A stretch of 64,000 nt of DNA, taken from Eledone cirrhosa (Eukaryota). This document shows, in pieces, positions 31,742 through 56,600 of this stretch; the stretch's first letter is position 1, and each line of letters opens with the position of its first letter. The stretch covers positions 35,216,001 through 35,280,000 of the forward strand of contig OZ024741.1 in assembly GCA_964016885.1 (NCBI GenBank), written 5' to 3'. The position numbers and the translations under genes were made by a program. The notes under the pieces were generated by a model that saw only the letters and a program-made list of their open reading frames with translations, did not search any database and was not told the DNA's origin.

Positions 31742-31799
31742 ATACTATGATCATTTCAATGACCGGGTTCCGTATGAATCCGGTGATATCATCAGGTAT
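31742..31799 (-). ncRNA. Type I hammerhead ribozyme motif
   Basis: ATAC-CTGATGA-[TATCACCGGATTC ATACG GAACCCGGTCATT]-GAAA-TGATCA-TA-GTAT: core boxes, 4-bp stem I, palindromic stem III; base of stem II is imperfect. Confidence 0.7.
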
Positions 31800-33764
31800 T
31801 CGAAATATAATACGTGAATGTAATAGATAAAATCCATGGGGCTGAAAATCGAGGACCGCTATCTTGCACCTTCTACCTTAGCCGGTCGCCCTCGAGCGAC
31901 GTGGCTAAAGCTCACAGTGTGCTATTACCGGTCAGATAAAGGAAAACAGAAAGGGATGGGAACATAAGTTAGCGTTAATCTCATGCCACAAGACAAAAGA
32001 AAGAAAGAAAGGAAGGAGAGAGAAGAAGGGGGAAGGAAGAAGAAGAGAAGCCAGGGTTAATGTCAGCTATAAGAAGAATGACAGAAAGAAAGAGGGGGAA
32101 AGGTCGGTTTTACAGTCAGGCCAGGATTGTCGCGAAGAAATTTTTTTATTCTACGGGACCCGTATCTAAACAACTACAACCGGTCAGATATAGGCAAACA
32201 AAAAGGGGGAAGGAAGATAAGTCTGCGGGAGGAAGACAGAAAGAGGGGAGAAAAGAAGGAAGAAAAGGAAGAAGTAGAAGAGTAAGGGTTGATGGCTACA
32301 AGAAGGAAGATAGAAAGAAAGAGGAAGAAAGGTCGATATTAATGTCAGACTACAGTCAGGCCAGGAGTGGCGCGAGAAAATTTTCACAGGGACCCGTATC
32401 TTAGCAGAGGTGAATATAGTGGGGGTCAGTGTGTTATAATGTGTGAGCAGAAGATTGGAACGTTACGTTTTTGTTTAGACTTATAGGATGAAGTTAAAAA
32501 TTAATAATTAATATTTAATATTAAAGAAATTAGAAAATTTAAGGTTAAACAGTTTAACATTTTAAGGTTGATATATCTAATAGTTCTGATTTGATCTGTA
32601 ATTTAAAGGTACTATGTGGTGGTTAAAAACCGGCCGCGCTCCGGGCCCCCGGGGCAAATTAAACCACTCCGAGTAGTTTCATTTACCGAAAGAAGGGGAA
32701 ATTTATTTTTCCAAGCACTCAAGGTAGGCCCATGCGTCAGGGGGCTGGTCGCGCCGCCATTAAAACCCACCCAACAGTCCGACAGAAAGTTTTAAAATAT
32801 TGTTTAAATTTATAGGATGAAGTTGAAAGAATTCAGAATAACATTATAAAATTAAAGAGTAAGAAGATTGAGAATTGAACAAACAGAAAATTGAAAATCA
32901 AACATTTAAAAAAAACTTCTATAAGGTTTTGGGGTTGCGGAGTTTAATTAAAGAGAGTCTTTTATGAAGAAACGTTAATTGTATTATGTAGATCTATAAT
33001 TTATCCTAGTGGGATGTAGAGTACGGGATATAGCCGGGTAATATTTATTTTTGTTCTCAGGGGAGACATTCTAGTGTCGTGTCCTAATGGGTACAAGTGA
33101 GCAAAAGTCCCAATAGGAGGAGTAGAAATACATGGATACATAGAAGTGGAATACGTGGAAGAGCACATTGATAAAGCAAAGGTATAAATATATAAATATA
33201 AATATGTAAATAAACCAACAAGAGTGGTGTTGGAGTAAGATGGAGAAATCAGACATAGGAGAAGTACAATATAGTTCAGGTTGCAGTATTAATGTTCCCA
33301 GGGGGAGACATTCCAGTGTCGTGTGCTAAGGGTACACGCGAGTAAAAGTCCGAATAAGGGAAGTAAAAAGTACATGTATGTATAGAGGTAGAATACGTGG
33401 AAAAGCATTAATACAGCAAATAAAGATATAAATTATATTATATATATATATATATATATAAAAGGAATAGGATTTCGCTTCAAGCATAGCTTTATACAAT
33501 ATGTATAAATATTTCGTATCTCTGTATTTCTTTGGAGATACGAAATATTTATACACACACACACACACACATATATATATATATATATATATATATATAT
33601 ATATATATATATAAACAATGAGTTATATGGTTTGTTAATTTTACAACAGATTAGAAGCACTCAACAATTTTATCTGGAGTATCATTAATATTAATAAATG
33701 GAAAATATCTTTATAAAACCATATTTATTTTATATACGTATTTATTTATTTATAAAACGATATT

Positions 33765-33825
33765 TATTTTATTATACGTATTTCAAAGGTACTAATATTT
33801 AAGTACGCTTTCGTCAGATGAAATA
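33765..33825 (-). ncRNA. Type I hammerhead ribozyme motif
   Basis: TATTTCAT-CTGACGA-[AAGCGTACT TAAATATT AGTACCTTT]-GAAA-TACGTA-TA-ATAAAATA: stem I 7 of 8 pairs, palindromic stem III. Confidence 0.7.
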
Positions 33826-33964
33826 TAATATTTGGTGTTAAGATAGTGACATATCTTCATGTGAACTTAATGGTATAAGTCCAGTGACTTAAAAATAAAT
33901 ATGGTTTTATAAAGATATTTCCCATTTATTAATATTCTTAATATATATATATATATATATATAG

Positions 33965-53080: not shown

Positions 53081-53505
53081 TCATCATCATCACCGTTTTA
53101 CGTCCATTCTTCCACGCTAGCATGGGTTAGACGGGTTGTCCTGTTGTGGGCAGTGTCTGGTCGGCTGACCTTGTCTTGCTCATACAGGAACTGATTCTGA
53201 CTTGATTTCTACAGCTGGATGCCTTTCCTAACACCAACCTCATTTAGTGCTCGGTGATTTTATTTCCGTGGCGCCTACACATCCACTTTACAGTGTGGAC
53301 TGGGTGCTTTTTTGCCGTGGCACTTCCACGACCACTTTGCTGTGGAATGATAGGGACTCCAGTCCTATCATCTCATTTCTACAGCTGAGTAAACTGGAGC
53401 AATGTGAAATAAAGTGTCTTGCTCAAGGAAACAACACATCACCCGGTTCGAGAATTGAACTCACAACCTTTCGATTGCAAGCCCAATGCTCTAACCACTA
53501 AGCCA
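53081..53505 (-). mobile_element. SINE family B copy with RTE-derived tail
   Basis: Head matches 45361-45500; tail nearly identical to the RTE 3' end at 9627-9890. Confidence 0.8.
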
Positions 53506-53678
53506 TATATATATATATATATATATATATATATATATATATATATATATATATATATATATATATATATATATATATATATATATATATATATATATAT
53601 ATATATATATATATATATATATATATATATATATATATATATATATATATATATATATATATATATATATATATATAT
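53505..53678. repeat. Long pure (TA)n microsatellite
   Basis: ~170 bp; borders the end of the Penelope-like arm. Confidence 0.95.
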
Positions 53679-53679
53679 G

Positions 53680-56600
53680 TAGATAAATCTACCAAGAGTT
53701 TACGGTAGTGTCCAATCCGTATGAAGAACTCAATGTATTCCGGATATCATGGAAAGAAGAGATGAAATGAAAAATCACTTTCGGTGAAAGATAAACGGTA
53801 TACAGAGTCAAGATAAAATATTAAACAAATAATGAATAAAACAATGAAACAGTTCCTTATATTAAACAAAAAAAGTTCATTATTTAACGATCGTTTCTAG
53901 GATATATATGTGTTAGAATTGGCATGCATATTCAACAGATCTATGTACAAAATTATACAAAATTATACAAACTATCAAGATTAAATATACATACCAACAC
54001 ATATATACGCCGTCTTCAGAAATAATGAAATATATTTATTGATAATAACAACAATTCAAAATTTCAGGTCCGTTTGGGAACAAAATTGACCAATGAAAAT
54101 ACAAAAGGTTTTATGCAGTTCGGTGTGTGTATATACATGTAACTACCCTTACACATATTTTACAAAAATGTATGCTCAACATGTATACGCATACCAAAAG
54201 GATGGATGCAAATACAAAATTTCAAGGTTAATGTCTCTGTAAGTTTATAATGCACAGATAAGATGCGTATAGACACATAAATATGAAATAAGTGTATACA
54301 CATATTCTCATACTCACACATATCCGTACAATCACACACACGCGCGCGTATATGCATAAACATACACATAATTACGAACATACAAACACACACACACCCC
54401 CACTCACATATATATATGTGGATATAATATCATAAGCACATGGATATTAATTCACTCACATAAACACTGTCACACACATTTAGATCAAGATACAGAAATT
54501 AGGTGGGAGATGGGGAGAGGTCAGTATTCAACGGTTTGGGCAGACTGCTTATTATAGATGTATCTATAAACTAAGAAAATAAAAAGAAAAAAGAAATATA
54601 TCAAGAAAATATATATATATATATATATATATATATATATACATACATATATATATATATATATACATATATATATACACAAACACATACATACATATAC
54701 ACACATCCACACTTAGAACATACATACACACACATATATAAACATATACAAATACACACATACACACATATACACACATACATATAAATATATATATATA
54801 TATATATATATATATATATATACACACATATATACACATATAATCACACAAACTATATAGACACACATATATATACACACATACACGCACATATACATAC
54901 ACATACATACTTATATACATACAGATATACACATACATACCTATATATAGACGCAAATTCATACAGATATACATACATACATACGCACAAATACTTACGC
55001 ATCCATATATCGGTATATACATACAAACACCAACTACACTCTCACACAACTCAGACATACAAAGAAAAAGGTATATACCTATATACATATACATATACAA
55101 ATAGAGATACATATACATATATATATATATATACATACACATATATATATATATATATATATATATACATACACATATACACACATATACATACATACAC
55201 ATACATACATGTACACACACATACATATACATACACCTACACATACATACATACATATATAGTCATACACACACATACACCTACACGAACATACACATAC
55301 ACATATATAAAGATATATATATACACACACACACATACACACACACACATATATATAAAATAAAGATATATATATATATATATATATATATATATATATA
55401 TATATATATATATATATATATATATATATACATACATATACATACACACATACATAGACATATATGTACATACATACACATACATACATACATACACACA
55501 CATATATACATATATATACACACATAGACACATCCATACATACACACACAACATACATACACACACATATATACTCATACATAGAATTAGATATATATTC
55601 ATACATACATATGCACTTACATATACTCATATATACAAATACATACGCATCCATATATGCGTATATACATACAAACACCACTACACCCTCACACAACTCA
55701 GACATACAAAGAAAAAGGCATATACATATACATATATACACGCATTAATAGAGATATATATACACATATATATATATATATATATATACACATACATTTA
55801 TATATATACACCCACACACACATACAACCATAAACACACATACAAAACATACAAACACACACATACACATATATATACACATACATATATATACACACAC
55901 ACAAAAAACAGACATACATATATATATTTTTTTACACATATATATACACATATATATACATATACACACCCTCACATATACACACATACACATAAGTTAT
56001 ATTATAATAATAAATAATATATATATATATATATATATATATATATATATATATATACACATACGAATATAGACATATATACACACATAGATATATATAT
56101 ATATATACATATACACACACACACACACACTCACATATATATGTGTGTGCGCACACGCACATACATACACATACACACATATACACGTAAACACATACAT
56201 GTGCATACATGCACATACACACATATACCCACATAGATACGAAGATAGACATATAAATAGAGAGACATACATATATATACACACACATATATACATACAT
56301 ACATACACACATATATATATATAAATATATATATATATATATATATACATACACACATACACGCCCACACACATATACACATATACACATATATATACAC
56401 ATACACACATACACATACACATATATATACACATGCATATATACACACATATATATACATACACACATATATATACACACAATCTTACATTCTTATTTGC
56501 ATGCGCATATATGTATTTTTATATTCAGATATAAATACCCAAACATATATACACCTACCTACATATATATTAATACATACACGCTTACAAACACAGATGA

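Follow-up and report, generated by a model that had tools for sequence, protein, structure and literature searches.

We analysed a window of 64,000 nucleotides (nt) from Eledone cirrhosa (assembly GCA_964016885.1, contig OZ024741.1, positions 35,216,001 to 35,280,000 of the forward strand; all positions below are counted from the first nucleotide of the window). The window contains four type I hammerhead ribozyme motifs whose stem III is self-complementary and that lie upstream of (TA)n tracts, together with a Penelope-like element (PLE) to which one of the four can be linked.

Four type I hammerhead motifs with a loopless, palindromic stem III

Scanning the window for the strict pattern CTGANGA..GAAA-hexamer-TH, in which the hexamer pairs with itself and stem I is paired, gave exactly four matches, listed here from C3 to H17 in the standard hammerhead numbering scheme:

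31746..31795, minus strand: motif 1; stem III palindrome A-TGATCA-T, stem II region of 31 nt, stem I of 4 bp
33773..33817, minus strand: motif 2; A-TACGTA-T, stem II region of 26 nt
40254..40324, plus strand: motif 3; A-TATGTA-T with one U·G, stem II region of 52 nt
53886..54019, minus strand: motif 4; A-CGATCG-T, stem I of 10 bp, stem II region of 115 nt

These are the motifs that an earlier note, made from the sequence of this window, had placed at 31742-31799(-), 33765-33825(-), 40250-40328(+) and 53876-54029(-), coordinates that comprise the cores plus stem I. The hexamers it gave (TGATCA, TACGTA, TATGTA, described as imperfect, and CGATCG) were all found, the imperfection of TATGTA being one U·G, and its range of ~26-115 nt for the stem II region agrees with the measured 31, 26, 52 and 115 nt. 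The core is exact and in type I order (CUGANGA, GAAA, UH) in all four motifs. In 200 dinucleotide shuffles of the window, made in 1-kb blocks, the strict motif occurred 0.005 times on average (maximum 1), and the pattern with the palindrome alone, also observed four times, occurred 0.335 times (maximum 2). The frequency of the motif, for which the note had proposed a comparison with shuffled background, is therefore well above that background within the window.

Including A15.1 and U16.1, stem III is a loopless 8-nt palindrome in each motif. The palindrome made of 15.2-16.2 and loop 3 is perfect in three of them and contains one U·G in motif 3, and the three inner pairs of stem III vary on both sides across the motifs with pairing kept. 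The claim that stem I also stays paired holds in part: pairing is possible in all four motifs (4 bp in motif 1, 2+5 with one mismatch in motif 2, 4 bp in motif 3 and 10 bp in motif 4), but the third pair in motif 2 is a C·A mismatch, and motifs 1 and 3 have only 4 bp, followed by an internal loop. At the base of stem II, pair 10.1-11.1 is U·U, A-U, G·U and C·A in motifs 1 to 4, respectively. The fourth pair of stem II is a C·C mismatch in all four motifs (in motif 1 after the initial U·U), but in 0 of 57 hammerheads from related loci, which are described below. The chance of finding C·C in all four motifs is ~0.004, a figure calculated post hoc and assuming independence. The common mismatch suggests that the motifs form one lineage-specific structural group despite their unrelated flanks; shared ancestry would also explain it.

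Compared with mononucleotide shuffles of the same sequence, each stem II region has a more stable fold (z -3.1, -3.8, -2.1 and -7.8 for motifs 1 to 4), and that of motif 4 reaches -40.5 kcal/mol. For whole motifs, folding differs significantly from shuffles in motif 4 (z -6.9) and not in motifs 1 to 3 (z -1.2, -1.9 and -0.6). The palindromes have self-duplex energies of -7.2, -6.5, -2.2 and -10.0 kcal/mol, and none forms a hairpin within a monomer in the computed structures. Free monomers have part of the core paired in the computed fold, and dimers with open cores are computed to lie 6.8-14.8 kcal/mol below two monomers. Downstream of motif 2, stem III and the cleavage site recur in a partial tandem copy of 39-40 nt (33728-33783), which provides this motif with a second palindrome in cis, with a weaker stem I register.

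An Rfam search of the window returned no hammerhead among 124 matches at E<=5, the matches being only microRNA and snoRNA look-alikes on repeats. Cores with one mismatch occur at 5234, 37032, 18581 and 2241, and convincing stems accompany such a core only in a pair at 50788-50850 and 51466-51528, which is described below. Two weak candidates were dropped after checking: a match at 30406-30507 to a model built from related hammerheads (E 0.13), in which the core is broken, and an endonuclease-like peptide at 30863-30819 (E 0.57).

Each motif precedes a (TA)n tract

The following tracts lie downstream of motifs 1, 3 and 4:

31498..31543: (TA)n tract, 203 nt downstream of motif 1
40385..40410: (TA)n tract, 61 nt downstream of motif 3
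53505..53678: (TA)87 tract, 208 nt after H17 of motif 4; the presumed target at the 3' end of the inverted element copy described below

From H17, the next TA tract of at least six units begins 203, 160, 61 and 208 nt downstream in motifs 1 to 4, close to the ~55-200 nt that had been noted before. Only 12-13% of positions in the window are equally close to such a tract, giving p ~2-3e-4 for the four motifs.

A Hydra-type Penelope-like element as the probable carrier of motif 4

Motif 4 lies in one of two oppositely oriented copies of a Penelope-like element encoding a reverse transcriptase (RT) and an endonuclease (EN):

53679..58319, minus strand: inverted, 5'-truncated Penelope-like copy; EN-coding sequence at 58319-57714, then a 3' region of 4035 nt
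58416..60380, plus strand: Penelope-like open reading frame (ORF) of 654 amino acids (aa), stop to stop; RT (YRDD), low-complexity insert, CxCx5C linker and C-terminal GIY-YIG
60381..64000, plus strand: 3' region of the forward copy, cut off by the end of the window; projection puts its hammerhead at ~64067-64200

The copies form an inverted repeat (54086-58319 against 59775-64000, 98% identity, 1455-nt spacer). Between the arms there are 14 substitutions and 68 gap columns, almost all of them within microsatellite sequence; segment 53679-54085 of the inverted copy has no partner within the window. From the stop codon at 57714, the 4035 nt of the inverted copy's 3' region include degenerate microsatellites and end in motif 4 with a 207-nt tail, the left end of the copy abutting (TA)87. 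Motif 4 is the sole CTGANGA in this region, and there is no other core after the stop. The forward copy is 5'-truncated at 58320, has a frame break near 58413-58422 and is ~6.1 kb long by projection; CTGANGA is absent from the part of its 3' region that lies within the window (60381..64000). Because the window ends 67 nt short of the place in the right arm that would mirror motif 4, the link of this motif to the element rests on the left arm plus extrapolation. Both arms contain ~1.9 kb of degenerate TA/CA microsatellite (54609-56481 and 61611-63477), the site of nearly all differences between them. Diverged copies of the last ORF codons and the stop region recur with a 144-nt period at 60318-60511 and 60760-60784.

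The forward copy encodes, in the single ORF, RT followed by a C-terminal GIY-YIG domain, with CNCRNKANC at aa 514, YIG, CRLCSQE at aa 612 and CNH at aa 640; the last two place a CxxC and a CxH on either side of the E and N of the EN, and the EN has no CCHH. The truncation lies behind the N-terminal RWK/DKT site, and the sole DKT (aa 378) sits in the low-complexity insert. This N/K/T/H-rich insert is encoded at 59370-59690, and the spacer of the window protein measures 119 aa, against a median of 24.5 (maximum 74) in homologs. Pfam and PDB sequence searches returned nothing for the window protein or its profile; among 49 aligned members of the homolog set, Pfam recognized GIY-YIG in 3 and RVT_1 in 2. 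We assign the element to the Hydra type because its ORF features match the published marks of that clade. We place motif 4 close to the 3' end of this retrotransposon's inverted arm. The earlier attribution of the hammerheads to Penelope-like elements thus stands with respect to a Penelope-like ORF with Hydra marks and to motif 4 in its inverted arm; a carrier was found for motif 4 only.

Hammerheads of related elements

Among 8000 candidates scored, 1347 were homologs of the window ORF. The 120 homologs listed have best single-segment identities of 33-51%; the CxCx5C linker is present in 117 of them, DKT in 98 and RWK in 59. A C-x(1-4)-C in the GIY-YIG core was found in 0 of 111 evaluable homologs. 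For the search for hammerheads we used 101 related loci, 78 from metagenome contigs (from the best 80 of 300 relatives) and 23 from genome contigs; IMG/VR gave 11 pattern matches, with no relative among them. Several of these loci are near-identical, and some yield two or three ORF ends. A flank of 150 nt or more is available for 89 ends, and in 59 of the 89 a type I hammerhead follows on the sense strand at a distance of 50-509 nt (median 114). A stricter pattern had 87 matches (57 distinct) in the related loci and 0 in each of 20 shuffles. A hammerhead also lies upstream of the ORF in many loci, which, together with the downstream one, would provide the pair needed for a dimer.

In these relatives the GAAA-to-UH spacing is mostly 7 or 8 nt, with palindromic hexamers in three loci (L015, L021 and L077), and stem II regions measure 10-31 nt. 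The pair that closes stem II is U·U in 23 of the 57 distinct relatives, and C15.2-G16.2 is invariant (57/57); motif 4 also has C-G. The alignment rows were selected for pairing, such that the pair counts lean towards structure; the invariant C-G was not selected for. A covariance model built from the 57 relatives gave its best score in the window to motif 1 (E 0.037), with motif 2 in third place (E 0.57). These scores, the state of pair 15.2-16.2 and the differences in spacing mark the window motifs as atypical. The 23 loci L079-L101 are Hydra-like PLE sequences in bacterial assemblies (mostly metagenome-assembled genomes, several of animal symbionts), many of them with hammerheads, and are most likely host DNA in bacterial bins.

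Surroundings of motifs 1 to 3, and a second inverted insertion

Three smaller units between or within TA tracts lie elsewhere in the window:

31544..33438, minus strand: stretch of 1.9 kb flanked by (TA)n tracts, the putative carrier of motif 1; the boundary is an estimate
33614..33940, minus strand: mini insertion of 327 nt that contains motif 2 and is flanked by (TA)n
50537..51708, no strand assigned: second TA-embedded inverted insertion, with 442-nt arms (98%) and a partial direct repeat of ~486-nt period

The putative unit of motif 1 contains internal diverged duplications and no ORF remnant. The motif 2 unit repeats 45 nt of its 3' part in inverted orientation (33687-33731 and 33892-33936, 98%), and its geometry is a miniature of that of the large inverted element with motif 4. 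The flanks of the four motifs have no blastn similarity to one another, which fits the several TA-targeting families suggested by the earlier note. Those of motifs 1 to 3 do not align to the element of motif 4, and against the 101 related loci they gave only one 34-nt match. Motifs 1 to 3 are likely 3' remnants of related TA-targeting elements. With no ORF link and no C15.2-G16.2, we would not assign them to the Hydra clade.

A fifth, hammerhead-like motif occurs in each arm of the insertion at 50.5 kb, at 51466-51528 (+) and 50850-50788 (-). Its core is CAGAAGA (U4A), stem I has 8 bp and stem III has 6 bp with a 4-nt loop, and the motif folds as a monomer. There is no ORF remnant in the insertion, which looks like a retrozyme-sized unit inserted with PLE geometry.

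Sequencing runs indicate a many-copy 3' end at motif 4

Part of 53690-54290 is held in 19 of 24 listed sequencing runs (15 studies); none is recorded as RNA, and they have no bearing on expression. Four runs were mapped on 53655-54560. In run X1, 3672 contigs fit the motif 4 end, with a summed depth of 110k-927k over 53686-54026, then 186k, 61k and 31k in the next three bins towards the 5' side and 10-27k to 54336; summed contig depth is no copy number. Cover in X1 goes on at lower depth to 54560, and runs X6 and X8 contain pieces with few differences at 54122-54509. We read this profile only as motif 4 being a many-copy 3' end, most copies of which begin shortly upstream of the ribozyme. Run X8 has no cover at 54027-54181, and one of its contigs (depth 106) turns back on itself at 54026, within stem I of motif 4; it possibly reflects units arranged head to head, each beginning at the ribozyme.

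Of 71 variant rows over the mapped stretch, 40 were listed, and in these the core, the palindrome and the C·C mismatch are free of changes. A U to A change at H17, which stays within H, accounts for 290k of 801k in X1 and is also present in X6 and X8. One stem I variant turns an A-U pair into G·U and keeps pairing; a variant at 53996 (major in X8) would break a stem II pair unless compensated.

Predicted pair-dependent cleavage and alternative explanations

We consider it probable that the four motifs are loopless, self-complementary type I hammerheads, motif 4 being carried by a Hydra-type PLE and motifs 1 to 3 likely being remnants of relatives, and that they would be cleaved only as a pair. 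We propose that the GIY-YIG nuclease of the element, with its CxCx5C linker, would nick (TA)n, as the published target bias of the clade suggests, and that the RT would copy the RNA from its 3' end, mostly stopping early, to leave a hammerhead, a tail of 60-210 nt and (TA)n. Indeed, the arrangement of hammerhead, tail and (TA)n is observed, and the 5' fall in depth is seen for motif 4; an inverted truncated copy placed head to head is seen for motif 2, motif 4 and the 50.5-kb element. A lone motif would be unable to close a 4-bp stem without a loop, and its core would be sequestered as in the computed fold; it would then remain uncut for the most part, allowing complete 3' ends with an intact ribozyme to be copied into DNA. 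By contrast, two copies in one transcript, such as the terminal repeats at either end of a tandem element, could pair through their 8-nt palindromes; both cores would then form and cut after U-H, releasing unit-length RNA, as the published dimer cleavage of related motifs leads us to expect. More speculatively, the C·C at stem II pair 4 might be a docking site for stem I.

Several observations weigh against this interpretation. None of the four motifs is in head-to-tail tandem in the window, and no full cis partner was seen there. The distance from the stop codon to the core of motif 4 is 3695 nt, compared with 50-509 nt in relatives, and motif 4 may have been captured by read-through instead of being native to the element. 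The G10.1-C11.1 pair is found in 0 of the 4 motifs, the base preceding GAAA being U, U, U and A; with its absence and with the long stem II, the motifs are unlike the minimal type of Cervera and de la Peña 2014 (PMC4209133). A profile search of the window found no PLE protein remnant near motifs 1 to 3, which all have U15.2-A16.2 (3/3) where the relatives have C-G (57/57), and neither motif 3 nor motif 4 is among the hits at E<=5 of the covariance model built from the relatives. Among the relatives themselves, 30 of 89 ORF ends have no hammerhead match and 12 of 89 have one on the opposite strand, and a TA tract of at least five units lies within 300 nt in only 10 of 48 evaluable cases. Lastly, minimal PLE hammerheads with a short palindromic stem III show no cleavage as monomers and weak cleavage as dimers (PMC4209133), which is also the account of a review (PMC6765202), the source used here for Lunse et al. 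2017.

The alternative that survives best, which we nonetheless regard as unlikely, is that hammerhead-plus-tail units of ~350-400 nt are themselves non-autonomous elements, similar to retrozymes or short interspersed nuclear elements, which borrow the enzyme of a PLE, and that the long Hydra-type copy acquired motif 4 by read-through into such a unit. This would account for a depth that is more than tenfold higher over the motif 4 unit than a few hundred nt upstream of it, for the end of X8 cover and the fold-back contig at 54026, for a 3.7-kb gap between stop and ribozyme that is unlike any relative, and for the ~486-nt partial tandem unit of the 50.5-kb element; animal retrozymes have moreover been traced to PLE terminal repeats (bioRxiv 10.64898/2026.07.22.740005). 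However, cover persists upstream at lower depth (in X1 to 54560, in X6 and X8 at 54122-54509), as 5' truncation also gives, no other core follows the stop, and motifs 1 to 4 are not in tandem arrays. The origin of the ribozyme and its predicted chemistry would be the same either way.

We think it improbable to a greater degree that the motifs derive from PLEs and are dead or nearly so, their shape being kept by recent descent or as a signal for protein binding or priming. The non-canonical 10.1/11.1 pairs, the sequestration of the core in monomer folds and the uncut site retained in genomic copies are what such decay would predict; related motifs are weak in vitro (PMC4209133), and Naiad elements spread without canonical hammerheads (PMC8557442). 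It is harder to reconcile with an exact core and compensated stems in four motifs whose flanks cannot be aligned, or with a common cleavage-site variant that stays within H. Chance matches in AT-rich DNA, combined with an assembly fold-back that created the large inverted repeat, are a very remote explanation: the window is AT-rich and repeat-rich, Rfam finds no hammerhead and motifs 1 to 3 as wholes fold no better than shuffles, but four motifs stand against 0.005 expected, the arms differ (14 substitutions, 68 gap columns) and enclose a 1455-nt spacer that bears the ORF, the same geometry recurs at two smaller TA-embedded elements, and it is a published form of PLE insertion.

Beyond pair-dependent cleavage as such, we can entertain, as a doubtful extension, that the motifs represent this lineage's own class of obligate dimers, with an 8-nt palindrome, a long stem II and a conserved C·C, common to several TA-targeting families. 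If this were true, the palindrome of each family would act as a self-recognition code, cleavage would take place in trans between separate RNAs of the same family, and ribozyme-headed, non-autonomous units of ~350-400 nt would spread to very high copy number, driven by a long-tailed Hydra element. The role of hammerheads in EN-bearing PLEs has been called unclear (PMC8557442). The window, with a recent Hydra-type copy that has the very stable motif 4 and with three diverged motifs that have other palindromes, offers a ready test set. Since Rfam misses all four motifs, and the model of relatives two of the four, hammerhead counts in such genomes are probably low.

Other features of the window

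A Gypsy-type long terminal repeat element lies at 20185-25818, with terminal repeats identical over at least 300 nt and with gag, protease-RT and integrase-like frames. A near-perfect 111-nt palindrome at 37521-37631 has sub-threshold microRNA model scores and is possibly a hairpin resembling a miniature inverted-repeat transposable element.

Comparison with known systems

The link between PLEs, a 3' hammerhead, a palindromic stem III and (TA)n is already published. In the literature outside subscription papers, we found no Hydra-type element with a 4-kb 3' region, no 115-nt stem II and no combination of a loopless hexamer with C·C; a search aimed at a C-C mismatch in hammerhead stem II likewise gave none, and Lunse et al. 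2017 may cover such variants.

Naiad PLEs share with the window element a (TA)n bias, inverted and truncated insertions and presence in cephalopods, but have an N-terminal EN and no canonical hammerhead, whereas the EN of the window ORF is C-terminal (PMC8557442). The non-LTR retrozymes of animals are likewise non-coding, measure a few hundred nt and contain a type I hammerhead; their proposed origin is the terminal repeats of PLEs (PMC7229834; bioRxiv 10.64898/2026.07.22.740005). They are defined by head-to-tail tandem units, whereas motifs 1 to 4 are single, a partial tandem being present only at 50537-51261. The minimal hammerheads of metazoan PLEs have in common with the window motifs the type I topology, a palindromic stem III that cannot close in a monomer, an occurrence mostly as single, scattered motifs from truncated elements, and pairs on opposite strands; here the palindrome is longer (8 nt, from 15.1 to 16.1), stem II is much longer, and G10.1-C11.1 is missing (PMC4209133).

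The closest resemblance is to the Hydra clade (Craig et al. 2021, PMC8557442), which includes Hydra-1_Obim of Octopus bimaculoides and whose members almost all insert in (TA)n and carry a 3' hammerhead; one element, Penelope-13_HM, has a hammerhead on both strands. The clade's elements are generally <3 kb, as opposed to ~6.1 kb for the forward copy by projection. Their listed hammerheads have 7-8 nt between GAAA and UH (4 bp and a 1-3 nt loop) and a short stem II, compared with 6 nt and up to 115 nt here, and follow soon after the stop, a typical and not diagnostic position that differs from the 3.7 kb in the window. The window element nevertheless shares with the clade the RT followed by a C-terminal GIY-YIG, the CxCx5C linker, the absence of CCHH and the CxxC and CxH around the E and N of the EN, as well as the (TA)n target and a type I hammerhead shortly before the 3' end. 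Many hammerheads of the clade have U·U at the base of stem II. An inverted truncated copy at the 5' side is found in the clade as it is here, and such a copy beside the 5' end is a published form of PLE insertion.

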